Part shown: in pieces, positions 8,156 through 51,461 of the stretch
How the letters are laid out: every line of letters starts with the position of its first letter
How positions within the stretch are numbered: the first letter of the stretch is position 1
Assembly: GCA_964430945.1 (NCBI GenBank)
Contig: CAYSHH010000005.1
Location: forward strand, 334-64,333
From: an uncultured Candidatus Saccharibacteria bacterium
GTDB taxonomy: Bacteria > Patescibacteriota > UBA1384 > JAMDBS01 > CAYSHH01
Reading direction: 5' to 3'
Length of the DNA stretch: 64,000 nt
Position numbers and translations under genes: made by a program
Notes under the pieces: generated by a model
What the model saw: only the letters and a program-made list of their open reading frames with translations
Told to the model about the DNA's origin: nothing
The model's database searches: none

Positions 8156-8230
8156 TGGAGGGCCATGTGGGAATCGAACCCACGACACAGAGCTTAAAAG
8201 GCTCCTGCTCTACCTCTGAGCTAATGGCCC
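8156..8230 (-). tRNA. tRNA-Lys (anticodon UUU) with encoded CCA
   Basis: Reverse complement reads GGGCCATTAGCTCAGAGGTAGAGCAGGAGCCTTTTAAGCTCTGTGTCGTGGGTTCGATTCCCACATGGCCCTCCA. The anticodon loop is CTTTTAA, the T-loop is TTCGATT, and the acceptor stem is GGGCCAT/ATGGCCC. Confidence 0.9.
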
Positions 8231-37904: not shown

Positions 37905-39512
37905 ATGAATAAGATAATAAAAAAACTGAGCGGTCAGAACTCTATTCGTGGCGCGACCGTTATATTGATCGTGACACTATTTTTGTCAAATATTTTAGGA
38001 CTTATTCGTGATCATTATCTTGCCCAAAAGATACCCACGACTATCCTTGATGCTTACTACGCTGCATTCAGAATACCAGACTTAGTATTTAATATTGTAA
38101 TACTCGGAGCGATAACTGCTTCTTTTATACCAGTATTTACCAAATATATTACTAAAAATAAATTAAACGATGGTTGGCACGTCGTTAGTTCATTTATAAA
38201 TATATCAGCTGTTGTATTGGTCATATTTTTGATAATACTATATTTCCTAATGCCTTATATTATTCCTCTTCTGGTTCCAGATTTTGACATTGAAAAACAA
38301 GAACTAACTTTGAATTTATCTAGATTAATACTACTTTCTCCATTGTTTTTTACACTCTCGTATATATTTGGAGCAGTTCTAAATTCATTTAAAAGATTTT
38401 TTGTATATTCACTAGCGCCATTGGTTTACAATTTGTGTATCATAATTGCAACATTATTTTTTGCTGATAGCATTGGAGTATACGGGGTTGTTTACGGAGT
38501 ATTGATTGGTGCTTTTTTCCATATGCTTATACAAATGATACAAGTATTTAAGATTGGGTTTAAATACAAATTTGATTTTGACTACAAAAACCCCGATGTA
38601 AGGAAAATTTTTAAATTAATGATACCAAGAGCTGTCGGCTTAGGATCGAATCAAATTATGCTTGTAGTATACACGGCAATAGCATCGACTCTTGCTGCCG
38701 GTTCCGTAGCGATCTATAATCTGGCTGATAATATTCAGACTATGCCTACGGTCGTGTTTGGAATATCATTCGCTACAGCAATATTTCCTACACTTTCTGA
38801 GCACTTTAACCAAAAGAAACTATCTGAATTTAGCTCACATATACATAAATCTATTAAGGCAATTGCCTATACATTAATACCTTTGTCTATCATGATAATC
38901 CTTCTTAGAGCACAGATTGTAAGATTGATTTTAGGATCTGGATATTTTGGATGGAATGAGACAATACTTGCCTATAATACTCTTGCATTTTTTATGTTAT
39001 CTTTATTCTTTCAGGGACTTATTCCACTATTCGCAAGGGCTTTTTATGCGATTCATAACACGAAAACCCCAACAATTATCAGTGTACTGAGTGTAATAAT
39101 CGGTATTATAATGGCTTATATATTTGCACCAGCTATGGGTGTTACTGGGCTAGCTCTGGGGTTTTCGATAGCCAGTGTATTTAACGCATTTGTACTTTAT
39201 CTATACCTTAGAAAAAACGTATTTGAAATTAAAAACCAAGAAGGTGGACTTGTAGTCTATCTTATAAAAGTATGTTTTGCGGCTATTGCAATGGGAATTG
39301 TGATGCAAATATTTAAAATATATGGAGGAGAATATTTTGACCTGAGTCGTTTCTGGGGAGTATTTGGACAAACACTTGTAGCATTTACCATAGGCGTAGT
39401 CACATATTTCGGCATTTCAAAAATTATTAAAATCGAACAACAAGAAGAACTTGTAAAACTTATTAGGAGATATTTAAATCAAAATGGAAAAAGAGAAATC
39501 AATAAAGACTAA
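37905..39512 (+). CDS. murJ: lipid II flippase MurJ/MviN
   Basis: 535 aa, 14 TM helices, with MurJ-conserved N-terminal R/D residues. Confidence 0.85.
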   Translation: MNKIIKKLSGQNSIRGATVILIVTLFLSNILGLIRDHYLAQKIPTTILDAYYAAFRIPDLVFNIVILGAITASFIPVFTKYITKNKLNDGWHVVSSFINISAVVLVIFLIILYFLMPYIIPLLVPDFDIEKQELTLNLSRLILLSPLFFTLSYIFGAVLNSFKRFFVYSLAPLVYNLCIIIATLFFADSIGVYGVVYGVLIGAFFHMLIQMIQVFKIGFKYKFDFDYKNPDVRKIFKLMIPRAVGLGSNQIMLVVYTAIASTLAAGSVAIYNLADNIQTMPTVVFGISFATAIFPTLSEHFNQKKLSEFSSHIHKSIKAIAYTLIPLSIMIILLRAQIVRLILGSGYFGWNETILAYNTLAFFMLSLFFQGLIPLFARAFYAIHNTKTPTIISVLSVIIGIIMAYIFAPAMGVTGLALGFSIASVFNAFVLYLYLRKNVFEIKNQEGGLVVYLIKVCFAAIAMGIVMQIFKIYGGEYFDLSRFWGVFGQTLVAFTIGVVTYFGISKIIKIEQQEELVKLIRRYLNQNGKREINKD

Positions 39513-39663: not shown

Positions 39664-40950
39664 CTACCAATTCCATGGAAGAATATCTAGCACATCGAAA
39701 TTTTTAGAAGATGAACTTGGTATAGATGTTGGATTGATTGTTTGTGGGGAAGTTGAAGTAGAAGCAGGAGTAGGAGTAGAAACTTCTTTCGCGTTTTTTT
39801 CTTCTATAATTTCGGGCTCATCTTTGCCACGTGCTATAAATTCGGCTTTTACTATAAGGCGTTTATTATTAGTTCCTACTGGATAACAGGTCATAAGGGT
39901 TAGTGTATGTTTGTCTGTATTCTGTGCCAGTACGCTGACATCATTTGGATCAACGATGGTTTTTTCATATACTCGATAGATATAACCGTAATCGTCATAT
40001 CCAACACCAATTTCATCACCAACTTCAATCTGATCAAGATTTGTAAAAACAGTTTTGTAGCCTCCATCATCCCACCAGTAATATGATGAGTGGCCAGATA
40101 TAAACACATTTCCTTCGCCATCTTGGGCGCTCTCTCCTGGCCTAGAAGTTCCTTTGTAATGTACCACGCCATGTTTCAAATTTTCCATCATCGTGGCCTC
40201 ATCTACCGGGGAATCCCAAATAATAGGTGCTTTGACGTCTATTTTGGGTACCCATAGCTCATTATTTATAATTCCTCGTAATCCTAGTTCGTCTTTTGTT
40301 GGGCCTCTTTTGACTTCTTCTTTATCGTCGGTTGCTGGGGTATCGTATAATGTTACTGTCGACAAAAAAAGTAGATCTTCATTTGTACTGGCCGGGATAA
40401 TGGTTTGAACTTGTGGTTTTTCTCCAGTTCTTTCTTTGTAATTATATGATAATTTTTTCCACAATGCAGGAAAATTAAGAAATAGATATACAAATATAAA
40501 AGATCCAAGGACGAACAATGTCATTCGAAATACTAGTTTTATTGTATTGGTTCTTGGTTTTTTATCAATTGTCTGTTTGGTTTGCGTTGTATCGTCTGCA
40601 TGTTGCTGCGTTATATTTTCTTGATTAGTTTCTGGGGTATTAATCGGTTGTTTGGGCATTTGTGCATATTGCCTAGTGATTGACAATTTTTCATTATCGC
40701 TTAAAATTGGTTGTAAATTTTTTGTTTCATCATTTGTGACAGGTGGTCGATCAATTTCTAAGGATACATTTTTATAGCTGTCAGTTTTTGGAATAGATGA
40801 CGTTGAATTAATAACTTTTGTCTCGTTGTCTTTGGTGAGATCAAAAAGACTAACTTCTTCGTCATGTGTATCGTTTGGAGAAATATTTTCTAGATTAGAA
40901 GATTCTGAGTTGTTCGGTAAATTATTTTTATTACCACTAAAATTAGGCAT
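39664..40950 (-). CDS. sortase-family transpeptidase with a long low-complexity N-terminal region
   Basis: Catalytic TLMTC (Cys) and ISGHSS (His) motifs, and RLIVKA (Arg). One TM helix around residue 150. C-terminal S/T/P-rich tail ending PWNW. Confidence 0.8.
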   Translation of the reverse strand: MPNFSGNKNNLPNNSESSNLENISPNDTHDEEVSLFDLTKDNETKVINSTSSIPKTDSYKNVSLEIDRPPVTNDETKNLQPILSDNEKLSITRQYAQMPKQPINTPETNQENITQQHADDTTQTKQTIDKKPRTNTIKLVFRMTLFVLGSFIFVYLFLNFPALWKKLSYNYKERTGEKPQVQTIIPASTNEDLLFLSTVTLYDTPATDDKEEVKRGPTKDELGLRGIINNELWVPKIDVKAPIIWDSPVDEATMMENLKHGVVHYKGTSRPGESAQDGEGNVFISGHSSYYWWDDGGYKTVFTNLDQIEVGDEIGVGYDDYGYIYRVYEKTIVDPNDVSVLAQNTDKHTLTLMTCYPVGTNNKRLIVKAEFIARGKDEPEIIEEKNAKEVSTPTPASTSTSPQTINPTSIPSSSSKNFDVLDILPWNW

Positions 40951-41051
40951 ATTAGCACCTTTAATAGATTATATTCTTCATATATATTATACTTTATATA
41001 TAGAAAAAACTCGACCTTATAGCCGAGTTTTTTAGAATACTTACGGTAAGA

Positions 41052-42599
41052 CTATTTCTGATTGAATATCTCATCTCTAAACATAAAATACCCAACTGAG
41101 GCAATAATAGCCATAGCAATCAGAATATTAAACCAAAGCGATGCGCCCGTAGAAACAAGTTGAGAAATATTGGAGATATCCGACTGAGATGAACTGGATG
41201 ATGAAGGTATGTTTGTTGATGGAGACCCTGTAGTATTACTTGAGGATGACTGGTTACCAACTGTACTATTTGCTGTGTTGTTGCTTGAATTATTTTGATT
41301 TGTCGAATTTGAAGAAGAATCTGACCCTGCATTCGGATTGAATACCTTATAAGGTGCAATCTGTTTAGTAATATGATAAAGAGGTTTCACAGAATAATTC
41401 TTGTCATAAATAATATGAGAAATATTATTTTTATCAATGACCAATTGAATGTCACTATTTTTTGTCATATTGTCAATATTTTCAGTTTCTGTTTTCCAAG
41501 AACTACCATTAAAATACTTATATTTCATGCCTGAATTTTGGACGTATGCAATATGGGGATTTCCTGACATATCAAGCGCCATAGATACACCTCTATCAGT
41601 ATCGTAGATCGCATCATCAAGGACCAATTCATTTTTCCAACTACCATCTTTATTTGTCAAATAATAATAGTCTTGATGCCAAGCACCATTTTTTTTGGTC
41701 TGCTTAGATACCAATATATGCATATGATTATTTGAATCAACCAAGGGATTACCAATCATCAGTAAACTCCCCATATCAACATCTGTTGAATTTGTTGCAA
41801 GCTTAAAGTCATTATAATCAAACACCTGAGGTTTCCAATTATCAGCAGCAGAATATATAGCAAAAGCTTCGCTTGAAAATTGATTTCCAGTATTCAAATA
41901 ATAATCGGCAATGTCAATATTATCTGAATGATCAACTGTCATTCTGGCAGCCGAGCTAGCTTCTACATTATCTAGAATGTTTTTTGTTTTCCATGACCCG
42001 TTATCTTCATACAATATGGAATATTTTCTCGTTTTGCTATTGTAAAGAAGCGCATATAATTCATTTTTTGAGTTGACCTGCATTTGATTATTGGATCTAT
42101 TTACCAAACTCTCAGATTCTCCGATAGGAATATCTTCATTAGTCCAATTTTTCCCGTCATAAAAATAATGCTTAATACTAGTAGCTTGATAGTCTTGCGT
42201 TAAAATATGTAGATTACCTTCCTGATCAACAATAGGCGCGAATCTTTGTGTATTGCTTGCCGGACTAACCAATGGTACTTCCTTACGAAGCCAACCAGAA
42301 GAATTTCTCGTCAAATAATCTGCCGTAATTGATACCGACGAGGAATCGGTTGCGGAGACATTTACGTCTCGGCAAACGAGATTTAACACATTATTTGGAT
42401 TTACATTAAATGTTTTAGTATCAAGAAAATAACAATCGCCCACATTTTCAGATGTCCATTGGTCGGAAGATGCAACATCAGCACTAATTTTTGAGTTTTC
42501 GTTTTGAAAATAATAGACAACTATTGCGATAGAAAGAAAAACAATAGAAATCAATGCAAGAAACAGTAGCCTATTTTTTATACTAATTTGCTTGAACAT
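41052..42599 (-). CDS. secreted beta-propeller-like repeat protein with a C-terminal LVSTG sorting signal
   Basis: N-terminal signal/anchor. Repeated DG(S/K)xWKxE Asp-box-like motifs. S/N-rich linker, then QLVSTGASLWFNILIAMAIIASVGYFMFRDE. Confidence 0.65.
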   Translation of the reverse strand: MFKQISIKNRLLFLALISIVFLSIAIVVYYFQNENSKISADVASSDQWTSENVGDCYFLDTKTFNVNPNNVLNLVCRDVNVSATDSSSVSITADYLTRNSSGWLRKEVPLVSPASNTQRFAPIVDQEGNLHILTQDYQATSIKHYFYDGKNWTNEDIPIGESESLVNRSNNQMQVNSKNELYALLYNSKTRKYSILYEDNGSWKTKNILDNVEASSAARMTVDHSDNIDIADYYLNTGNQFSSEAFAIYSAADNWKPQVFDYNDFKLATNSTDVDMGSLLMIGNPLVDSNNHMHILVSKQTKKNGAWHQDYYYLTNKDGSWKNELVLDDAIYDTDRGVSMALDMSGNPHIAYVQNSGMKYKYFNGSSWKTETENIDNMTKNSDIQLVIDKNNISHIIYDKNYSVKPLYHITKQIAPYKVFNPNAGSDSSSNSTNQNNSSNNTANSTVGNQSSSSNTTGSPSTNIPSSSSSSQSDISNISQLVSTGASLWFNILIAMAIIASVGYFMFRDEIFNQK

Positions 42600-42609
42600 T
42601 TTACTCCTA

Positions 42610-43926
42610 TTATTTACCGTTTATTTCTTTTCTAAACATAAAGTAACCAATACCACCGATTAAGAGTAATGCAAGAAGTATATTAAACCAAAGTGATGCG
42701 CCGGTAGATACCAATTTGGTAACTTTTGTTATTGGTGTATCCGAATTAGAGTTGTCGATTACTGGTGTAGTACAAGCACTTACCATTGTCTCCATCTGAT
42801 CAGAAGCCTTTGATTCAACACCTGCACTATCGTGGGCAATTACATAATAACAAGCTGTTACATTGCAGTCTTCACTACTTTGGATATCGGATGTTTGATC
42901 TAGAGTATAAGATGTTTGATCTGTAGAAGTGATGTATGTTCCAGAACAATTATAAATATCATATCCACTAGCATCATCTACTTTATTCCAAGAAATAGTT
43001 ACATTTTGACCATCATACTCTATTTGTGTATTTTCTGGTTTCTTCGTGCTTATATCAGTAACTATATTTTTGCATTGGCCAGTTGTGACCGTAACGGTGT
43101 CTGAAGGATTGGATCCATAGCCCTGTTCATTTATTGCTGTAACATGAAAGGAATAATCTGTCTCACATTTTAGTCCGCTAATAGTATAGGAATTGGAATC
43201 GGCTGTGGCGATCCAGGAAACTTCGTCAGCGTTATAAATACCATAACTAGTTGCAGTGGTTACAGCATCCCAAGAGAGTTTAACGCTGTCGCTAGTTACT
43301 TCGGAAGATTTAAGATTGGTTGGCGGATTGGGTTTATTTATTGTAGGACTTGGGCTAGGAGTCGGAGTCGGGATTGCGGTCGTAGCCGTAGTCGTAGGAG
43401 TAGTAGTGGTAGGAACCGAAGTCGTAGTTGTAGGGGCAGTTGTAGTTGGGGTTGATATCGTACATTGAGTAGCTCTTTTTTCTCCTAATAGAGTATTTTT
43501 GCCAGTAGAAGTAACGTGCCCAATTACTCTGTAATTCCACCCATGTGGATCGTGTGGACCAAAACTACAATAAGTCGACGTTTGGCGATAACAGTTCGGA
43601 CATGTTCCACCATATATCTGATTGCAAGTTTGATCAGTAGGACTAATATTTACCCAACCGTTGTCTGTATTTGCATATGATGTTCCAGCATATACTTTGA
43701 ATGAATAAAGGTCATAATTGGTAGCTCCTTTTACATAGGTCAATTTATCAATTTGTTTATTATCAGATCGAGAACAAACGGAATCAACTGTAAGGATTGA
43801 AACTGGTACTGGGTTAGCCCAGATACTTATACGTCCTGTTTGATTGCCCCATACTAAAAACGCAAACCCAAGAATCACAATCGCGATAAGTATTAGCATG
43901 GTAATTTTAAAACCTTTTTTTGTCAT
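42610..43926 (-). CDS. surface protein with Cys-rich module, Thr/Pro linker, two FN3-like domains and a C-terminal LVSTG sorting signal
   Basis: FN3-like LSWDAV...YGIYN...GLKCETDYSFHVTAIN. C-terminus KLVSTGASLWFNILLALLLIGGIGYFMFRKE. N-terminal motif WGNQTGRISIWAN. Confidence 0.65.
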   Translation of the reverse strand: MTKKGFKITMLILIAIVILGFAFLVWGNQTGRISIWANPVPVSILTVDSVCSRSDNKQIDKLTYVKGATNYDLYSFKVYAGTSYANTDNGWVNISPTDQTCNQIYGGTCPNCYRQTSTYCSFGPHDPHGWNYRVIGHVTSTGKNTLLGEKRATQCTISTPTTTAPTTTTSVPTTTTPTTTATTAIPTPTPSPSPTINKPNPPTNLKSSEVTSDSVKLSWDAVTTATSYGIYNADEVSWIATADSNSYTISGLKCETDYSFHVTAINEQGYGSNPSDTVTVTTGQCKNIVTDISTKKPENTQIEYDGQNVTISWNKVDDASGYDIYNCSGTYITSTDQTSYTLDQTSDIQSSEDCNVTACYYVIAHDSAGVESKASDQMETMVSACTTPVIDNSNSDTPITKVTKLVSTGASLWFNILLALLLIGGIGYFMFRKEINGK

Positions 43927-44300
43927 AGCCCTCCTAAAAATATATTATTTAATACATAAATCCCAAACAAATACGATGCAAGGTTACATAAAAATGAAGA
44001 AATAAAAGATTGTTTCCAATCTATTTTTAAGAAAAAATAGTAAAATATTGCTTCTACGATAAATACTATAATCTCTGAAGATACCACATATACCATATAA
44101 TTCTCACTAAATACTACCGGAAAAATAAACCAGACATACGGAAGTGTAGCAGCACTAATTAATCCAGCAAGAACGATCATTGCAGTAGGAACCTTCTCCT
44201 TACCAAGCCTGTATAGATACCGAACAGTAAGGAGAAGTATAATCATCTCAATAATTATTGTAAAAGATAGATAGATGAAAAATATATATTCGTATTTCAT
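43923..44300 (-). CDS. small polytopic membrane protein embedded in the sortase locus
   Basis: 125 aa with 4 TM helices. 4-nt overlap with the downstream gene. Confidence 0.5.
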   Translation of the reverse strand: MKYEYIFFIYLSFTIIIEMIILLLTVRYLYRLGKEKVPTAMIVLAGLISAATLPYVWFIFPVVFSENYMVYVVSSEIIVFIVEAIFYYFFLKIDWKQSFISSFLCNLASYLFGIYVLNNIFLGGL

Positions 44301-44305
44301 ATTTT

Positions 44306-46099
44306 TTAAGAATTATTGTGAATTTCGCGTCTGAAGATTATATAACCGACACAACCGGTTATAACTAGTGCAAGAAGAATATTAAACCACAAAGATGCAC
44401 CGGTAGATACCAATGAAGTGACTGTATTGGAAACCGTGGCACAACTCTCCGTATCAACATTTATTTTATCTGAAGGTTGTGATTGACTCGAATCGTTGTG
44501 AGCAACTACATAATAACAAAGTGTTTGCCCGCAAGATAAACCACTAAAGTTTGCGGAAGTACTGTCAGTTGAATGTATATAATCTCCGTTACAATTGTAA
44601 ATATCGTAACCAGTCGCACCTTCTACGGCATCCCAGGAAAGTGTCGCTAGGCCATCACCATGATATGTGAGAGATATATTCTCTGGCTTTTCGTTAGAAA
44701 TATCAGAACCTGTTTGACAAGCAGTGGTTGTCGCAGATGCTGTGCTAGATGGATTAGATTCTTCATTTCCAATACCAGCCGTTACATAATAGCTATATTC
44801 TGTGTTGCATTTGAGTCCTTTAGCAGTCCATGTAGTATTTGATGATTCTACTGTTGCGATCAAAATATTGTTGTCTGCATTGTAGATATTGTAGTATCCC
44901 TCACCTGATTCTAGAGCCGCGTCCCAAGTAAGCTTAATTTCAGTATTGCTAGTTCCTTGAGCAGTGACATTTGTTGGAGCAGTAGGTGTAGAGATAGTAT
45001 ATGAAGGTGTCGGAGAAACATTAGAACATCCAAGACTTGGCGCATCAACAGTATCAGTTACTGATGAGTCAAAGTAGTTAATAGCTTTGTATTTTACCCC
45101 GTTGATACTTGGATATTGATGATTGGTTGTGCTACCGGATGCTGCATGGAGAGGAATAAAACCATTAGTATTCGGTGATTCCATATATAATTCTATTGTG
45201 GCTGAATTTTCGCCAGTCCAACTAAGATAATTAATTTGCTCACCAATATCACCGACGCATTCTGATCTATCAAGACTTAAATCAATTGAATAATTTTGAG
45301 TAGGTGTAGTTGTAGTTGGAGTAGTTGTGGTTGGGGTAGTTGTAGTTGGAGTAGTTGTGGTTGGGGTAGCAGAGCCATAGCATCCTTTTTGAGTGTCACA
45401 TTGTGGTCTACTTGGGTCACTACATGTATAAGGACCATCCCATTTATAACAACCGTTTACTAATCTGCAAGATTGATATTGAGTATTATTTATACATTTA
45501 ATATTAAGTGGGTAATTTGAATCTCCTTGAGTACATTCATTGGTGCAAGTAGTGCTTGTTGGATTGGTGGTTGACGTTGTAGTTGGATTGGTGCTAGAGC
45601 AAGCACTAGTAGACGTGGCTTCTGCAATTACATGCGTGCATGATTCGCTACCAGCACACTGCGTCCTTCCAAATTGATATCCGACTACTCTGTATTTGGT
45701 AGATTTTGGAGTACCTATATCAACACTGTATCGAAAACTAGAATTATTTATAGTCGTATAATTCTTAGTTTGTCCAACCCATTTACCATTTTCATATTTT
45801 TCCAACCAATATTCGCTTGGTTTTGGAACAATAGTTGTATAATTGACCAATATATTATCGGCTTGATTTGTTCCATTTTGCCTACAGTATGAAGTTATAC
45901 ATATACTACCATAAGTACCAGATTTACATATTGGATTGGTAACTGTATCTGCATTTGCCCACAATCCAATCCTACCCGTCTGATTGGCCCAAATGAGTAT
46001 TGATAGACTAACCAAAATAATTCCTAAAATTATTAGGAATATTGTTTTAGATCTTTTGTTGGCAAAAACATCTTTATGCCAAACAGAGTTCTTATTCAT
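44306..46099 (-). CDS. surface protein, paralog of 42610..43926
   Basis: N-terminal motif WANQTGRIGLWAN. Cys-rich module. FN3-like domains (LTWDAA...YNIYN; LSWDAVEGATGYDIYNC). C-terminus SLVSTGASLWFNILLALVITGCVGYIIFRRE. RBS AAGGAGGG upstream. Confidence 0.65.
   Translation of the reverse strand: MNKNSVWHKDVFANKRSKTIFLIILGIILVSLSILIWANQTGRIGLWANADTVTNPICKSGTYGSICITSYCRQNGTNQADNILVNYTTIVPKPSEYWLEKYENGKWVGQTKNYTTINNSSFRYSVDIGTPKSTKYRVVGYQFGRTQCAGSESCTHVIAEATSTSACSSTNPTTTSTTNPTSTTCTNECTQGDSNYPLNIKCINNTQYQSCRLVNGCYKWDGPYTCSDPSRPQCDTQKGCYGSATPTTTTPTTTTPTTTTPTTTTPTQNYSIDLSLDRSECVGDIGEQINYLSWTGENSATIELYMESPNTNGFIPLHAASGSTTNHQYPSINGVKYKAINYFDSSVTDTVDAPSLGCSNVSPTPSYTISTPTAPTNVTAQGTSNTEIKLTWDAALESGEGYYNIYNADNNILIATVESSNTTWTAKGLKCNTEYSYYVTAGIGNEESNPSSTASATTTACQTGSDISNEKPENISLTYHGDGLATLSWDAVEGATGYDIYNCNGDYIHSTDSTSANFSGLSCGQTLCYYVVAHNDSSQSQPSDKINVDTESCATVSNTVTSLVSTGASLWFNILLALVITGCVGYIIFRREIHNNS
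45301..45366. repeat. 30-bp tandem repeat (about 2.2 copies), coding
   Basis: gtagttgtagttggagtagttgtggttgggg x2, encoding (TTTTP)n on the minus strand. Confidence 0.7.
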
Positions 46100-46430
46100 A
46101 ACCCTCCTTATATAGTAGAAATAGTTAATTTAATCAGATCTACTACTTATTAATTTTTAAAAAATATTCTTATATTTATTGCCATTGAAATACGTGTGCA
46201 AACATTGATAAATACTATAAAATTTTCACAAGAGTGAATTTATGTACTACTTATTATTAAATCAAACACTATAATATATAACAAGAGGAAAACTCTTGAT
46301 AGTGACTTGGAAAAGCTAAATCATTCTGATTGATTAATGGGCACAAGGATTTGGAAAATAAAGAAAATTGGGAGTTAATTGTTGTATAAATCAATTATTA
46401 TCTTATTTACCGATTGGTAGGACAGTGGCT

Positions 46431-47474
46431 TTACTCCGCATATCCAACGAAACGAGCCCGCACTATCAAACGTCGTTCGCTTGTGCCTACCGGGACACAT
46501 GTCATTAAAGTAACAATGTGTTCGCTAGTGTCTTGTTTTACCACATCAACATTTTCTGGTGCAACCTCTGTTTTATCATAAACTTCATAGACATAAACTT
46601 TATCATTATATCCGATAACTACCTTGTCTCCGACATTTATATACGGAAGTGTAGCAAATATACTATGGTATTGTCCTGGATCCCAACTATAATACGATGA
46701 ATGTCCCGATATAAATACATTCCCAGTATTATTTTCCAATCCCTCTCCAGGCTTAGCTGTGCCAAGATAATGAGCTACCCCGTTTTGTAGGCTAGCAAGC
46801 ATACTATTTTCGTCAACAGATGAATCCCAAACTATCGGACATTGTATTCCAAGCGAGGGTACGGATAGTTGATTATTTAGAGTATTTTGAGCAACATAAG
46901 TGCTTTCGTCAGAAGTACTAAAATTTTCTTCTTGGGGAGCTTCTTCAGTTACCACTTCGTCTTTTTTCTCTTCTGGAAATTCAACGACCTTGGGGTCTGG
47001 ATATTCAATAATAATTGGCAAAAATAATAGACCATCATCGTTTTTATAAAAAACAGCGACTTTGGCAGTCTTTTGATCATTAGAGTATTCAATGACATCT
47101 GAATCATTCTCCTGAAATGTGGCTCTAGCGCTCAAGGCATCAAAATTTACAACAATATATATTACTATAAGTGATAAGATCATTGTAATAAAAATTATCG
47201 CAACAGTTTTCAATAAACTAGATTTTTTATACTTCTCATCTTTTTTATTGTGATTTGTTGTCGTAGAACTAGTATTGATGATTTCTTGAACTGGTGCTCT
47301 ATCTTTATGATTAGAAATCGATACCGACTTATCAAAATTTATCTTTGGTTTTGACGGAATAAAAACAGGCTTATTCTTGTGTTTTGTAGGGTTAGGTCTC
47401 AACACTTCAGCATCAACAACATCGGTGTTGATATCGTGTGGTTTTTCTATTTTTGGAGAATATTTATATTCCAT
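46431..47474 (-). CDS. sortase-family transpeptidase (second copy)
   Basis: ISGHSS, TLMTC and RLIVRA motifs. N-terminal TM helix. Confidence 0.8.
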   Translation of the reverse strand: MEYKYSPKIEKPHDINTDVVDAEVLRPNPTKHKNKPVFIPSKPKINFDKSVSISNHKDRAPVQEIINTSSTTTNHNKKDEKYKKSSLLKTVAIIFITMILSLIVIYIVVNFDALSARATFQENDSDVIEYSNDQKTAKVAVFYKNDDGLLFLPIIIEYPDPKVVEFPEEKKDEVVTEEAPQEENFSTSDESTYVAQNTLNNQLSVPSLGIQCPIVWDSSVDENSMLASLQNGVAHYLGTAKPGEGLENNTGNVFISGHSSYYSWDPGQYHSIFATLPYINVGDKVVIGYNDKVYVYEVYDKTEVAPENVDVVKQDTSEHIVTLMTCVPVGTSERRLIVRARFVGYAE

Positions 47475-47557
47475 ATTAGTATTATATATTTTTTTAATTT
47501 ATTAATCTAAATATATATCTGTAAAACATGTTTATAATATGGTACAATCAGATAATT

Positions 47558-49315
47558 ATGAATCCTATAAATATTCGAAATTTTTGTATTATTGCTCATG
47601 TAGATCACGGGAAATCAACTTTAGCTGATAGAATGCTTGAGATTACAAATACCGTAGAAAAGAAAAAGATGAAATCTCAATATCTTGATCAAATGGACCT
47701 AGAACGTGAGAGAGGAATTACGATTAAATTGCAGCCAGTAAGAATGTTTTATGATAATAATGGTGAAAATTATATTTTTAATTTGATTGATACTCCAGGA
47801 CATGTTGATTTTTCTTACGAGGTTTCTCGAAGCTTGGCAGCTGTAGAAGGCGCAATTCTTTTAGTTGATGCTACAAAGGGAATACAAGCACAAACTTTGG
47901 CTAATTTATATCAAGCAATTGATCAAAATTTAGATATTATTCCGGTAATCAATAAAATTGATCTTCCAAATGCTCAGATTGAAGAGACGAAAGATGAAAT
48001 AAATAAATTATTGGGTACAAAAAAAGAAGATATTCTGGAAATATCTGCAAAGACTGGTGAAAATGTGGAAACTATTTTTCCGGAAATTATAAAAAACGTA
48101 AGACCTCCAAAACTTTGTGACGATCAACCATTAAAAGCTTTGATATTTGATTCGCTTTACGACGAATATAGAGGGGTAGTGGCATACATTAAAGTATTGG
48201 AAGGAAAATTATCATCAAACGAAAAAATTCATCTTATTGCGTCATCCGAAGACGATAGGGCACTTGAAGTTGGGTATTTTTCACCACAATATACGAAAAA
48301 AGATACATTGGGATCTGGTGAAATTGGTTATGTAATAACTGGTTTTAAGGATGTTAGATTCTGTAAAGTTGGCGATACAATTATTAGTTCAAGTCATTAC
48401 TTGGAAAGCTTGAAATCTAAAAATCCAGTAACTCCCCTCAAGGGATATAAAAAAGTAAAATCAATGGTTTTTGCTCAATTTTATTCTCGTAATGGCGAAG
48501 TTGACAAGCTAAGAGACGCACTAGATAAGCTTTCATTGAATGATTCTGCACTTAGCTTTGAGGCAACAAATTCACATGTATTCGGTATGGGATTCGAATG
48601 TGGGTTTTTAGGACTACTTCATCTTGAGATAATCAAAGAAAGACTCCTAAGAGAATATGGTCTTGATCTTATTATTACCTCCCCTAGGGTAGAGTACAAA
48701 ATAGAAAAAATTAGCAACAAAACTATTTACTCTGAGCCGTGGGTAAAGCTTGAAGTTATTACTCCACAAAAATACATTGGCGCGATAATTGATATCACTA
48801 TAAGTATAAGAGGACAATATAGGGCTACTGAATATATCGGTGATCGAGCGGTAATAACGTTTGACGCACCATTGGCTAACATTGTGACCAATTATTATGA
48901 TCGACTAAAAAGCGTATCAGCAGGTTATGCATCATTAAATTATGATTTTTTAGAGTATAGAGAAGAAGATCTTGTTAAAATGGATATTCTCATCGCTGGA
49001 GATAAATATGAGAACTTATCTCAAATAGTTCACAGAAATGAACTGCTGCCACGTGCAAAAAATGTTGTTAAAAAATTAAAAGATCTTTTACCTAAACAAA
49101 CATTTAAGGTTATAATTCAGGCCGCACATGGAGGAAAGGTTGTTGCTAGAGAAAATATTGGAGCACTCAAAAAAGATGTTACAGGACATTTATATGGTGG
49201 CGATGTATCTCGAAAAAATAAATTATTGAAAAAACAAGCAGCGGGCAAAAAAAGAATGCAAATGATGGGTAAAGTAGATATCCCGACAGACGTATTTATA
49301 AAGTTATTGAAATAA
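47558..49315 (+). CDS. lepA: elongation factor 4 (LepA)
   Basis: AHVDHGKSTL, DTPGHVDF and NKIDL motifs plus the LepA-specific C-terminal domain. Start set at MNPINIRNF. Confidence 0.93.
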   Translation: MNPINIRNFCIIAHVDHGKSTLADRMLEITNTVEKKKMKSQYLDQMDLERERGITIKLQPVRMFYDNNGENYIFNLIDTPGHVDFSYEVSRSLAAVEGAILLVDATKGIQAQTLANLYQAIDQNLDIIPVINKIDLPNAQIEETKDEINKLLGTKKEDILEISAKTGENVETIFPEIIKNVRPPKLCDDQPLKALIFDSLYDEYRGVVAYIKVLEGKLSSNEKIHLIASSEDDRALEVGYFSPQYTKKDTLGSGEIGYVITGFKDVRFCKVGDTIISSSHYLESLKSKNPVTPLKGYKKVKSMVFAQFYSRNGEVDKLRDALDKLSLNDSALSFEATNSHVFGMGFECGFLGLLHLEIIKERLLREYGLDLIITSPRVEYKIEKISNKTIYSEPWVKLEVITPQKYIGAIIDITISIRGQYRATEYIGDRAVITFDAPLANIVTNYYDRLKSVSAGYASLNYDFLEYREEDLVKMDILIAGDKYENLSQIVHRNELLPRAKNVVKKLKDLLPKQTFKVIIQAAHGGKVVARENIGALKKDVTGHLYGGDVSRKNKLLKKQAAGKKRMQMMGKVDIPTDVFIKLLK

Positions 49316-49455: not shown

Positions 49456-49989
49456 ATGAAAAAAAGACAAACTAAAAAAATAATACTTGAAAAATCACTT
49501 GATATTTTTATTAAAAATTCTTTTTTCAGCGTGTCAATGCAAGATTTGGCTAATGCCCTCGACATCAAAAAATCATTAATCTATTATTATTTTGAAAGTA
49601 AATCTAAACTTTATCAGGAAGCGGTTTTTCAATATTTAGATAATATTGTAAATAAATTTGAAATAATATTTTCAAACAAATTTACTGCCTCGGAAAAGAT
49701 AAGTCAACTTTCGGAGCTTTATCTCAAAGAACTTGAAAAAGAGCATTCAATATTATCAGGAAATATTGACTACAATAAACTAGATAAATCAATTATGAAT
49801 GTAATTAGTAAAACACAAAAAAGAATCGTTGGCTATTTCGAGTCAATAATTTCAGAGGGTATTAAAAAGGGTGAATTTAAAAACCTTGACCCTAAAAAAT
49901 CGTCTTTAGCTATGATTGGATATATAGAAAAAAATAAACAATATAATAACAAACTGGAAAAGAACTGGTTTGATTTTTTATTAAAATAA
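49456..49989 (+). CDS. TetR-family transcriptional regulator
   Basis: N-terminal HTH LEKSLDIFIKNSFFSVSMQDLANALDIKKSLIYYYFESKSKLY. Confidence 0.8.
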   Translation: MKKRQTKKIILEKSLDIFIKNSFFSVSMQDLANALDIKKSLIYYYFESKSKLYQEAVFQYLDNIVNKFEIIFSNKFTASEKISQLSELYLKELEKEHSILSGNIDYNKLDKSIMNVISKTQKRIVGYFESIISEGIKKGEFKNLDPKKSSLAMIGYIEKNKQYNNKLEKNWFDFLLK

Positions 49990-50003
49990 TGAAGGGAATT
50001 TAA

Positions 50004-51461
50004 ATGATCAAAGAAACTACAGATTTTATTGGCGATGCTTTTGAGGGAATAAAAAGTGGAACCAAGGCTTTTACCACTAAACAAACATTAAACCTCGCAA
50101 AAGGTATTATTAAACATGCCTCATATGAGCAAACAGCTCAACTTCTAAAGTTACTAGAGGTAGTTACGCCAGAAAATAGAAAAGGCAATATCAAAGGGAT
50201 ACAAGAAGATTTTGCCAATAAGGGTCCTTGGGCGCTTATGCTTAAAAAACTTATGTCAGAAACAAACCATGATTCTCTGGAAGGTTTTTTTGATAACTTT
50301 GTTGTAAACCAATGTATTTTGGCTGAAGATATTCGTCAGAAATTTGCCAAGAAGGAAGGTTTTACTCCACCATGGTTTTTAGCTATTTCTCCATCTATGC
50401 GTTGTAATCTCAGATGCGTCGGTTGTTATGCTGCGGAATATTCCAAAAAAGATGATTTGCCATATGAAGATTATGACAGACTAATAACTCAATCCAAGAA
50501 AAATGGTATTTACTTTTTTGTAATTCTTGGAGGTGAGCCATTTTTTCATGAAGATAATTATAAAATATTTAGAAAGCATAAAGATTGTTACTTCTTAGTT
50601 TATACTAATGGAACATTGTTAACAGAAAAAAAGATCCAGGAAATTAAGAAATTAAGAAATGTTGCCCCTGCAATATCCATTGAAGGATTTGAAAAAGAAA
50701 CTGCCGAAAGAAGAGGTGAAAAAGTTTGGCAAAAGATCATGGATGCGATGGATGTAATGAAAAAAGAAAAAATGTTGTTCGGGTTTTCAGCAACTTATAC
50801 CAAAAAAAATGCCTCTGTAATTGCTAGCAATAAATTTATTGATTTTATGATAGAGAAAGGATGCTCCTTCGGCTGGGTATTCCAATATATCCCAATTGGC
50901 AAAAAACCGGACATTACTCTTATGGCCACCCCAGAACAAAGAGAAAAGCTAAGAGTCTTTTCACAAAAAGTTCACAAGGAAAAACCAATCTTTATGGCAG
51001 ATTTTTGGAACGATTCACCATATGTTGGCGGATGTATGGCTGGTGGATCATTGTATTTACATATAAATGTAAAAGGCCAAGTTGAACCATGCGTGTTTGT
51101 ACAATTTGCAACTGACAATATCAAAGAGAAATCACTTACCGAATGTTTAAAATCTCCATTTTTTAAGATGCTTCGCGACAAGGGGCAAAGCATTAGATCA
51201 CCTCATAGAAAATCTGATAATATGCTGAGACCCTGCATGATTATAGACAATCCAGAGGTTTTACATGAATGTATTGACGCTTGTGATGCCAAAGCCTCAT
51301 ATGAAAGTGGTGAGCAAATTACTTCTTATAAAGATAATAAGGCTTATAAATATCTCAAAGATGATTATTCTAAAAAATGGGGTAAAATTGCAGATAAAAC
51401 TTGGGACAAGGAAAAGAAAAACTTTAAATATGACTGTGGATATTGTAATAAATGCAAATAG
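50004..51461 (+). CDS. radical SAM / SPASM-domain protein with a ~130-aa N-terminal extension
   Basis: CNLRCVGCY (CxxxCxxC at residues 134/138/141). C-terminal GGCMAGG...PC plus extra Cys clusters (CIDACD; CGYCNKC) typical of SPASM/twitch domains. Confidence 0.8.
   Translation: MIKETTDFIGDAFEGIKSGTKAFTTKQTLNLAKGIIKHASYEQTAQLLKLLEVVTPENRKGNIKGIQEDFANKGPWALMLKKLMSETNHDSLEGFFDNFVVNQCILAEDIRQKFAKKEGFTPPWFLAISPSMRCNLRCVGCYAAEYSKKDDLPYEDYDRLITQSKKNGIYFFVILGGEPFFHEDNYKIFRKHKDCYFLVYTNGTLLTEKKIQEIKKLRNVAPAISIEGFEKETAERRGEKVWQKIMDAMDVMKKEKMLFGFSATYTKKNASVIASNKFIDFMIEKGCSFGWVFQYIPIGKKPDITLMATPEQREKLRVFSQKVHKEKPIFMADFWNDSPYVGGCMAGGSLYLHINVKGQVEPCVFVQFATDNIKEKSLTECLKSPFFKMLRDKGQSIRSPHRKSDNMLRPCMIIDNPEVLHECIDACDAKASYESGEQITSYKDNKAYKYLKDDYSKKWGKIADKTWDKEKKNFKYDCGYCNKCK

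Follow-up and report, generated by a model that had tools for sequence, protein, structure and literature searches.

A sortase island in a Saccharibacteria bacterium and its proteins with an L[VI]STG-type C-terminal tag: probable covalent cell wall anchoring of variable surface proteins

Introduction

The '-CTERM' concept of the TIGRFAMs collection, with PEP-CTERM/exosortase as an example, describes lineage-specific C-terminal sorting domains with dedicated processing enzymes. It is one of the frames in which we compare the locus reported here, an island of six genes, among them two sortase genes, in the genome of an uncultured Candidatus Saccharibacteria bacterium; the island lies within a stretch of 64,000 nucleotides, which we call the window. 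Other points of comparison are the housekeeping sortases (class A with LPXTG, class E with LAXTG in Actinobacteria), the class C pilus islands of the SpaA, RrgB and FimA type, and a nontypical LVXTG signal on a Cna-type adhesin of Gardnerella (PMC12095359). The actinobacterial housekeeping sortase has a small transmembrane (TM) partner, SafA (PMC9282373). Sortases are common in genomes of the candidate phyla radiation (CPR) (PMC6744442), and Saccharimonadia and Microgenomatia form Pam pili by donor-strand exchange with chaperone-like proteins, for which no sortase involvement has been described; one Pam protein, PamR, has tandem FnIII domains and a C-terminal TM helix (bioRxiv 10.64898/2026.03.03.709456). 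In the literature that we searched for LVSTG/LVXTG motifs and for CPR sortase substrates we found no description of such a signal in CPR bacteria.

The island resembles the housekeeping systems in that its sortases possess an N-terminal TM helix only and the His/Cys/Arg triad, in that the substrates carry a Sec signal and a tripartite tail, and in that one enzyme is associated with several unrelated passengers, some of them encoded elsewhere. It differs from them by the motif L-[VI]-S-T-G with a fixed Ser followed by x-x-L-W-F-N, by scores below all class cut-offs, by the GHSSYYWWDDGGYK insertion, by a conserved TM exit, by a PT-rich LLPW/LLPx extension in most of the sortases and by cargo genes that are usually clustered with the sortase gene. 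With class C pilus islands it shares the clustering of sortases with tagged substrates, the presence of two sortases per locus and class C structures among the best PDB matches; unlike in those islands, the second sortase duplicates the first instead of belonging to another class, and the substrates are FN3 and propeller proteins without CnaB-type domains. As in '-CTERM' systems, a short conserved motif, a TM helix and a basic tail are found on many unrelated passengers in one lineage and are coupled to an enzyme, which here is a true sortase (C60) and not an exosortase, archaeosortase or rhombosortase. The Gardnerella signal, known from one protein of an actinobacterium whose machinery is otherwise standard, also has Val in place of Pro at position 2, whereas the L[VI]STG plus LWFN consensus reported here extends across about 79 clusters. 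Pam pili are likewise a CPR surface structure, and the FN3 cargos resemble PamR, by description only.

The locus is real, conserved and biologically coherent. In our reading the island probably serves the sortase-dependent covalent anchoring of variable adhesin-like or glycan-binding proteins to the cell wall, with a housekeeping sortase of the lineage as the enzyme.

Results and Discussion

A conserved C-terminal tag on three exported proteins

All coordinates given for the island are positions in the window; the island occupies 39664-47474 on the minus strand (Table 1). A preliminary description of this DNA had listed six open reading frames (ORFs) in the order sortase, FN3/Cys-rich protein, protein with four TM segments (4-TM protein), FN3/Cys-rich paralogue, beta-propeller protein and sortase, and the ORF list agrees with it in order, strand and coordinates. 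The identities that it had proposed for the FN3/Cys-rich pair, the 4-TM protein and the beta-propeller protein are all borne out by Pfam, by Cys counts, by hydrophobicity and by AlphaFold2 (AF2) models, and the N-terminal signal and tripartite C-terminal sorting signal that it had read in each cargo were seen in all three.

The tails of the three cargo proteins read LVSTGASLWFNIL...TM...FR[DKR]E and are identical in their motif, LVSTG-ASLWFNIL. When all six frames of the 64 kb were scanned with a regular expression, no other credible combination of LxxTG, TM helix and basic tail was found; the two other matches lie off coding ORFs. A profile built from the three tails was then searched against 1.84 billion representative proteins. 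It matched 85 clusters at E<=1e-3, about 79 of which are true, with the match at the extreme C-terminus, 30-45 amino acids (aa) from the end; on the window's own proteins it gives E-values of 3.6e-24 to 5.5e-23. The tail pattern is far beyond chance.

The consensus of the tails is L-[VI]-S-T-G-x-x-L-W-F-N-[IL]-L-I-A. Across 79 tails, the pentapeptide has L in 77, S in 70, T in 76 and G in all 79, and position 2 is occupied by V (58), I (17) or A (3), such that the motif is indeed LVSTG and not LPXTG or LAXTG, as had been noted for the three cargos. Beyond TG-x-x, conservation continues with L (69), W (76), F (59) and N (78), then [IL], L, I and A (72). The motif starts at a median of 34 aa from the C-terminus, the hydrophobic stretch of about 20 residues ends with Y-F-x-F, and R or K follows the helix in 75 of the 79. 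Curated models largely pass over this element. A comparison of the C-termini with sorting-signal hidden Markov models (HMMs), proposed in the preliminary description, gave for TIGR01167 no match on the full window proteins; with the tails alone, that of cargo 2 reached 16.1 bits against a cut-off of 15.9 while the other two window tails gave no match and the tail from the related locus L005 did not reach the cut-off, and at E<0.1 only 3 of 80 tag-bearing proteins were matched. Pfam holds no match to the tail. Taken as a whole, the tag is a true, conserved element of the sorting-signal type and forms a family of its own.

A back-translated DNA pattern of the tail was run on GTDB genomes and on metagenomes. 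In the metagenomes it recovered about 22 true tails; in the GTDB genomes it matched 34 stretches, and true matches occurred in two species only. The remaining GTDB matches, mostly the FtsX N-terminus of Acidimicrobiia (RETGQNLWRNILLA; L007-L038) or non-coding DNA, were rejected as chance. That the N-terminus of Acidimicrobiia FtsX (..RETGQNLWRNILLAVATV..) fits the tail pattern by chance calls for caution in searches by motif only. A further observation concerns the scissile position, where Ser replaces Thr in two proteins encoded beside sortases of the family: VISSG-ASLWFN (L042 3499-4590) and LVSSG-GNLWIN (L086 2-598).

The two sortases

Both enzymes are members of the sortase superfamily (PF04203/TIGR01076, MEROPS C60). 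PF04203 scores 98.7 bits for the 428-aa and 82.5 bits for the 347-aa protein (cut-off 26.6), and the generic sortase model TIGR01076 scores 75.5 and 58.2 bits, respectively (cut-off 39.35). The motifs ISGHSS, TLMTC and RLIV[KR]A, from which the preliminary description had deduced an intact triad, are found in both proteins; the residues are H287/C355/R364 in the 428-aa and H258/C326/R335 in the 347-aa enzyme, and the His, Cys and Arg columns are invariant in an alignment of 74 homologues. An AF2 model of the murJ-side sortase (m04f3ee592edb, mean predicted local distance difference test score (pLDDT) 86) shows the eight-stranded beta-barrel fold of sortases, with a Foldseek probability of 1.00 to many sortase structures and a root-mean-square deviation of about 2-3 Å over some 145 columns. 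The family, which is annotated as Patescibacteria in the source records, has an insertion of about six residues past the catalytic His (GHSSYYWWDDGGYK).

The two proteins are built differently at their ends. The lepA-side sortase has a cytoplasmic N-terminus, one TM segment (about aa 84-118), a linker with a conserved LLFL and the catalytic domain, and it stops directly past the catalytic Arg (..RFVGYAE) without any C-terminal extension. The murJ-side sortase has a long cytoplasmic N-terminus and one TM segment at about aa 136-164 with the exit motif YLFLNFPA, and its catalytic domain is followed by a hydrophilic, S/T/P-rich extension of about 50 aa that ends in LDILPWNW. Such a C-terminus, [LI]LPW[NR]W preceded by a PT-rich linker of about 50 aa and free of TM segments, is shared by many homologues (P0002-P0045), and [LI]LPW is found close to or at the very end of about 35 of the 120 matches listed; Patescibacteria sortases that are more distant have LLPG.., LLPKVN or LLPSIF there, and most members of the family possess a PT-rich extension ending in [LI]LPW or LLPx. 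The AF2 confidence for the LDILPWNW end is low (pLDDT 50-60). Tethered as it is, this end might occupy the substrate groove as a ligand (a pseudo-substrate), or it might be a motif for docking to the wall or to a partner. The idea that it represents a fused SafA-like domain, as known from Bifidobacterium dentium (PMC9282373), was rejected, as there is no TM helix at this place.

Sortase and tag occur together in related loci

The block of genes for DNA polymerase III alpha, L27, L19, GluRS and MurJ on one side and for LepA, a TetR regulator and a radical-SAM enzyme on the other recurs in relatives, and sortase and cargo genes lie between murJ and lepA in at least seven related metagenomic loci, with zero to four cargo genes and one or two sortases. 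Reading through the individual arrangements (protein lengths in aa), L003/L004 has sortase(280), a 394-aa protein, a 538-aa FN3 protein and sortase(420); L005/L006 has a 770-aa FN3 protein and sortase(341); L043 has a 676-aa FN3 protein and sortase(437); and L042 has a 530-aa propeller homologue, a 516-aa FN3 protein, a 363-aa protein and sortase(436). L082, from the same sample as L042, shows lepA, sortase(367) and a 780-aa FN3 protein. The more divergent L044 carries four tagged genes and a sortase gene next to murJ, and a 4-TM gene with a further tagged gene across GluRS. In L041 the sortase gene stands alone at the lepA-murJ site, and its 130-kb contig carries three tagged genes in tandem at another place (L017); this sortase is apart from its cargos, and the enzyme would thus act in trans. 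Orthologues of the sortase adjoining murJ were found in L001, L003, L005, L041, L042, L043 and L044.

The preliminary description had considered the case that tails of this type never occur together with these sortases in related genomes. The opposite was found. In the syntenic lepA...murJ islands L003/4, L005/6, L042, L043 and L082, the same tails are encoded beside the same sortases. A tail of this type is present on every cargo of the loci described above, the motif being LVSTG, LVKTG, LVRTG or, once, VISSG. Six metagenome loci that had been recovered by the tail (L044, L050, L060, L065, L068, L073) contain a sortase gene that scores above 300 bits with the family HMM and starts within about 100 bp downstream. 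Furthermore, a distant member of the family, P0067 (named 'class D sortase' at NCBI), has a cargo ending in LVSSG-GNLWINL encoded directly upstream. Loci with one sortase and one cargo, and the locus with remote cargos, fit a housekeeping anchor enzyme of the lineage.

The passengers and the 4-TM protein

Cargos 1 and 2 are paralogous (45% identity over 255 aa). Each has two FN3 domains, and Cys residues number 23 in the 597-aa cargo 1 and 12 in the 438-aa cargo 2. Cargo 1 consists of a WANQTG signal peptide, an N-terminal beta domain, a Cys-rich module, a PT-rich linker, a middle domain, the two FN3 domains and the sorting signal, and its C-terminal 225 aa are 40-61% identical to cargos of L082, L017/L049, L003 and L042. 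In cargo 2, which is 49% identical to the 516-aa protein of L042, the signal peptide is followed by a Cys-containing N-terminal domain, a PT-rich linker, the two FN3 domains and the sorting signal. In cargo 3, a beta-propeller follows the signal peptide and occupies about aa 60-410; a disordered stalk rich in S and N (aa 411-473) then leads to the sorting signal. This protein has no Pfam match; its AF2 model (m0cef99cee5f9, mean pLDDT 72) is an all-beta propeller for which the top Foldseek PDB matches are GH145 BT3686/BACCELL_00856, PL25 ulvan lyase and sialidases (E 1.7e-9 and weaker), and its homologues by sequence are P0122 (L042), P0125 and, weakly, BNR_4 (PF15892) proteins. Among the 80 tagged proteins, Pfam finds FN3 in 38 and Kelch in 5, in addition to GH85_C, PKD, SLH, DUF5648, BSP peptidase, Kazal and others. 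The passengers are varied, with adhesin-like and enzyme-like types. Several related tagged proteins, namely P0124, P0125 and those encoded at L042 45-1637 and 3499-4590, have a stalk with DxDxDGDGIPD repeats, rich in aspartate, ahead of the tag; by eye these repeats look like thrombospondin type 3 calcium-binding repeats; the window cargos have S/T/P/N-rich linkers in their place.

All three cargos begin with a hydrophobic signal, and these signal peptides are conserved as well: a basic stretch and about 20 hydrophobic residues lead to a c-region W-A-N-Q-T-G-[RK]-I-x-[IL]-x-A, and W-A-x-Q-T-G is present in more than half of the tagged proteins (42/76). With both the signal peptide and the tail conserved, the proteins can be regarded as freely exchanged passengers between matched N- and C-terminal cassettes.

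For the 4-TM protein, nothing was found in Pfam (E up to 10), in NCBIfam or among PDB sequences, nor was its exact sequence present in the contig index. The stop of its gene overlaps the start of the cargo 2 gene (ATGA). A homologue with 45% identity is encoded in L044 (10886-11245), and the two proteins share TLPYVWF, SEIxVxxxEAIFYYF and SF[LI]CNL; the protein is absent from L003, L005, L042 and L043. One gene caller placed the start of the 4-TM gene 18 codons later, giving 107 aa (L084).

A model for wall anchoring and the points against it

By analogy with characterized sortases, we envisage that the three proteins, two FN3/Cys-rich stalks and one glycan-enzyme-like beta-propeller, would be exported via Sec with the help of signal peptides of common c-region (W-A-N-Q-T-G-x-I-x-[IL]-x-A) and that the C-terminal TM helix and basic tail of each would keep it in the membrane. 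The signal L-[VI]-S-T-G followed by x-x-L-W-F-N would be recognised by a membrane-anchored sortase from a putatively Patescibacteria-specific clade, whose catalytic Cys would cut between Thr and Gly to form a thioacyl intermediate. An amino group on lipid II, a precursor of peptidoglycan, would then resolve this intermediate and so place the adhesin-like or glycan-binding passengers covalently on the cell wall. The murJ-side sortase may be the ancestral, lineage-wide housekeeping enzyme for the tag and the lepA-side sortase a recent paralogue. Where the tag is cut, what accepts the cargo and what the system does are inferred from the way in which sortases are known to work, and a part in host attachment or for the 4-TM protein is likewise only inferred.

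Several observations weigh against this model. The curated LPXTG models barely recognise the tail. Nothing in canonical signals corresponds to the LWFN box past the scissile bond, and the mode of recognition may therefore differ. The model gives no reason for two sortases beside cargos of identical motif. Of the tail-only loci with enough downstream sequence, about half have no adjacent sortase, namely six with at least 1.6 kb of it (L049, L053, L055, L058, L062, L064).

Other readings of the island

It is conceivable, if unlikely, that the sortases cleave the tag and that the acceptor is not peptidoglycan but an envelope protein, an S-layer component or a lipid, with LWFN, the 4-TM protein and LLPW acting in membrane-embedded recognition and hand-over. 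The LWFN-ILIAL sequence on the side of the leaving group is indeed unusually conserved, and so is the TM exit of the sortases: Y-LFL-NFPA (residues 155-162 in the 428-aa enzyme) is present in 59-66 of the 74 Patescibacteria homologues. The LLFL segment before the catalytic domain (residues 193-196) is conserved across the same 74, and the segment preceding it has a pLDDT >90 in the AF2 model. Conservation of this kind is unusual for a mere membrane anchor, and together the LWFN box and the conserved TM exit suggest recognition at the membrane interface. The conserved C-terminal LLPW on the sortase and the position of the 4-TM gene, which immediately precedes the gene of a tagged cargo in two divergent loci (the window and L044), would also suit such a hand-over. 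Against this, a link from these features to an acceptor is conjectural, most related islands lack the 4-TM protein, and the island adjoins murJ in all relatives. That position would be compatible with lipid II as the acceptor, although the synteny may be incidental.

The preliminary description had likened the locus to a Gram-positive pilus island. In this reading, which we consider improbable, a pilus or other covalent fibre would be assembled by one sortase that polymerises the FN3 proteins head-to-tail, via Lys or an N-terminal amine, and by another that anchors the polymer to the wall. The two-sortase bracket around several tagged proteins, which recurs in L003/L004 and in L082 plus L042, speaks for it, as do class C pilus sortases among the best PDB sequence and fold matches and the paralogy of the FN3 cargos, which could be major and minor subunits. 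The class-specific models do not bear it out. The class C model NF033745 scores 80.5 and 80.4 bits against a cut-off of 160, and classes D and E do about equally well: 76 and 47 bits for the class D model (cut-off 165) and 81 and 58 bits for SrtD (cut-off 140), each for the 428-aa and the 347-aa sortase, and 68 and 64 bits for the class E model (cut-off 160). The class F model reaches 19 bits (cut-off 166), and no class A or B NCBIfam model was reported at E<=0.1 for either sortase. Matches to PDB sequences are weak (<=50 bits) and mix classes C, D, E and A, and Foldseek matches structures of the same classes to the murJ-side model at indistinguishable E-values; assignment to a class by comparison with PDB sequences or folds is thus uninformative, since the classes behave alike. 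Because the scores with the class models are far below the cut-offs, the sortases fit no described class and are outside all of them; the preliminary remark that the system may differ from described classes holds for every class-specific NCBIfam cut-off and for the canonical LPXTG model.

Other features expected of a class C island are missing as well. Neither sortase contains a DP[WFY] lid motif anywhere in its sequence or a C-terminal TM anchor; each has a single hydrophobic segment, on the N-terminal side. A regular-expression search of the three cargos found neither the YPKN pilin motif, the absence of which had already been pointed out, nor the E-box, and no CnaA, CnaB or pilin-type family is among the 25 most often matched of the 29 Pfam families found in the 80 tagged proteins. 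The three identical tail motifs offer no subunit-specific signal, and relatives such as L005 and L043 manage with one sortase and one cargo. As for the bracket itself, we calculated a rough neighbour-joining tree of catalytic domains, without support values. In this tree, sortases ending in GYA[EQ] form one clade, which includes every lepA-side sortase with an examined neighbourhood and whose sister group is the murJ-side sortase of the window with its close relatives; in all four loci that show the neighbour gene of a GYA[EQ] sortase, this gene is lepA (the window, L003/L004, L082 and L083). Because of this sister relationship, the two-sortase bracket appears to be the result of a recent duplication confined to a sub-lineage, with the second sortase as the duplicate. 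The likeness to a pilus island hence fails on class C score, lid, C-terminal TM helix, pilin motif, E-box and passengers, and the label 'pilus island' should be dropped unless evidence for a polymer appears.

A bolder proposal, for which we see little likelihood, would credit Patescibacteria with a sortase class of their own and a bipartite signal composed of an extracellular L[VI]STG and a membrane-interface LWFN that is read by YLFLNFPA; in the sub-lineage with the lepA-side duplicate, the pair of enzymes would polymerise the FN3 stalks into a non-canonical covalent fibre, tipped or decorated with the propeller, by which the epibiont would hold on to its host.

A last reading, which is very improbable, takes the tails for plain C-terminal anchors that stay uncleaved in the membrane and have a conserved motif beside it; the adjacent sortases would then serve other substrates or another role. 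In its favour, most tails escape the curated sorting-signal HMMs, half of the loci found by the tail only are without an adjacent sortase, and the AF2 helix is continuous from just before LVSTG through the TM segment. Against it, the tails keep an exact tripartite layout (motif, about 20 hydrophobic residues, basic end) that starts at a median of 34 aa from the C-terminus, with near-invariant Thr-Gly, the window holds no other candidate substrate, and a sortase gene follows directly downstream in six loci recovered independently as well as next to the cargo gene of the distant family member.

Coordinates and surroundings of the island

Table 1. Features of the sortase island and its surroundings in the window
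Feature	Coordinates	Strand	Evidence or remark
lepA	47528..49315	+	island flank
lepA-side sortase, 347 aa	46431..47474	-	Pfam PF04203, E 2.7e-23
AT-rich non-coding spacer, 330 bp	46100..46430	-	between lepA-side sortase and cargo 1 genes
Cargo 1, 597 aa, FN3/Cys-rich	44306..46099	-	FN3 (PF00041), E 1.1e-12
Cargo 1 signal peptide	~46000..46099	-	
Cargo 1 sorting signal LVSTG-ASLWFNILLALVITGCVGYIIF-RREIHNNS, then stop	44306..44413	-	tail profile, E 1.7e-23
4-TM protein, 125 aa	43923..44300	-	four hydrophobic segments
Cargo 2, 438 aa, FN3/Cys-rich	42610..43926	-	FN3 (PF00041), E 2.6e-13
Cargo 2 signal peptide	~43830..43926	-	
Cargo 2 sorting signal LVSTG-ASLWFNILLALLLIGGIGYFMF-RKEINGK, then stop	42610..42714	-	tail profile, E 5.5e-23
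Cargo 3, 515 aa, beta-propeller	41052..42599	-	AF2 model and Foldseek
Cargo 3 signal peptide	~42500..42599	-	
Cargo 3 sorting signal LVSTG-ASLWFNILIAMAIIASVGYFMF-RDEIFNQK, then stop	41052..41159	-	tail profile, E 3.6e-24
murJ-side sortase, 428 aa	39664..40950	-	Pfam PF04203, E 2.6e-28
LDILPWNW, extreme C-terminal motif of murJ-side sortase	39667..39690	-	[LI]LPW among listed homologues
Small ORF, 49-56 aa	39484..39654	+	one TM segment
murJ	37905..39512	+	island flank
TetR-family regulator and radical-SAM/SPASM enzyme	49456..51461	+	after lepA
tRNA-Lys(UUU)	8156..8230	-	Rfam/ARAGORN

The spacer between the lepA-side sortase gene and the cargo 1 gene is a possible promoter region for the cargo genes; a Shine-Dalgarno sequence AAGGAGG precedes the 597-aa ORF. 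The ORFs within the spacer are at most 46 aa long and none has support. A weak terminator-like hairpin was seen at 46298-46282, and the number of such matches in the region is not above the expectation from shuffled sequence; scans of the region for promoters and terminators gave background level only.

The small ORF between murJ and the murJ-side sortase gene overlaps the 3' end of murJ and has counterparts at L003 11275-11445, L042 6115-6279 and L002 1735-1884, all with a charged N-terminus, one TM segment and a ..YFYLNK end. By its position beside a sortase gene and its single TM segment it recalls SafA, just as the ..LPW of the sortase recalls the FPW of SafA. Unlike SafA, it has no PGP/FPW and is encoded on the strand opposite to the sortase gene, and the LPW of the sortase is not adjacent to a TM helix.

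The TetR-family regulator and the radical-SAM/SPASM enzyme occupy the same place in L003, L005, L043, L082 and L083; as far as can be seen, this pair and the sortase island are unrelated. The window has a G+C content of about 33%, and the tRNA-Lys gene is its sole Rfam/ARAGORN match across the 64 kb.

Significance

The concept of sortases with variant motifs is well established, and the locus extends known biology without being conceptually surprising. Patescibacteria live attached to other microbes, and apart from type IV pili and the recently described Pam pili little is known of the means by which they display proteins that bind the host. Standard annotation misses the tagged substrates because LPXTG models fail on their tails. 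The tag L[VI]STG-xxLWFN-TM-basic, together with the sortase family that is cognate to it, would make it possible to list directly from genomes which surface proteins of these bacteria are covalently anchored to the wall. The FN3 stalks, the Kelch- and sialidase-like propellers and the Cys-rich modules are candidates for host recognition that can be tested in genetically tractable Saccharibacteria.

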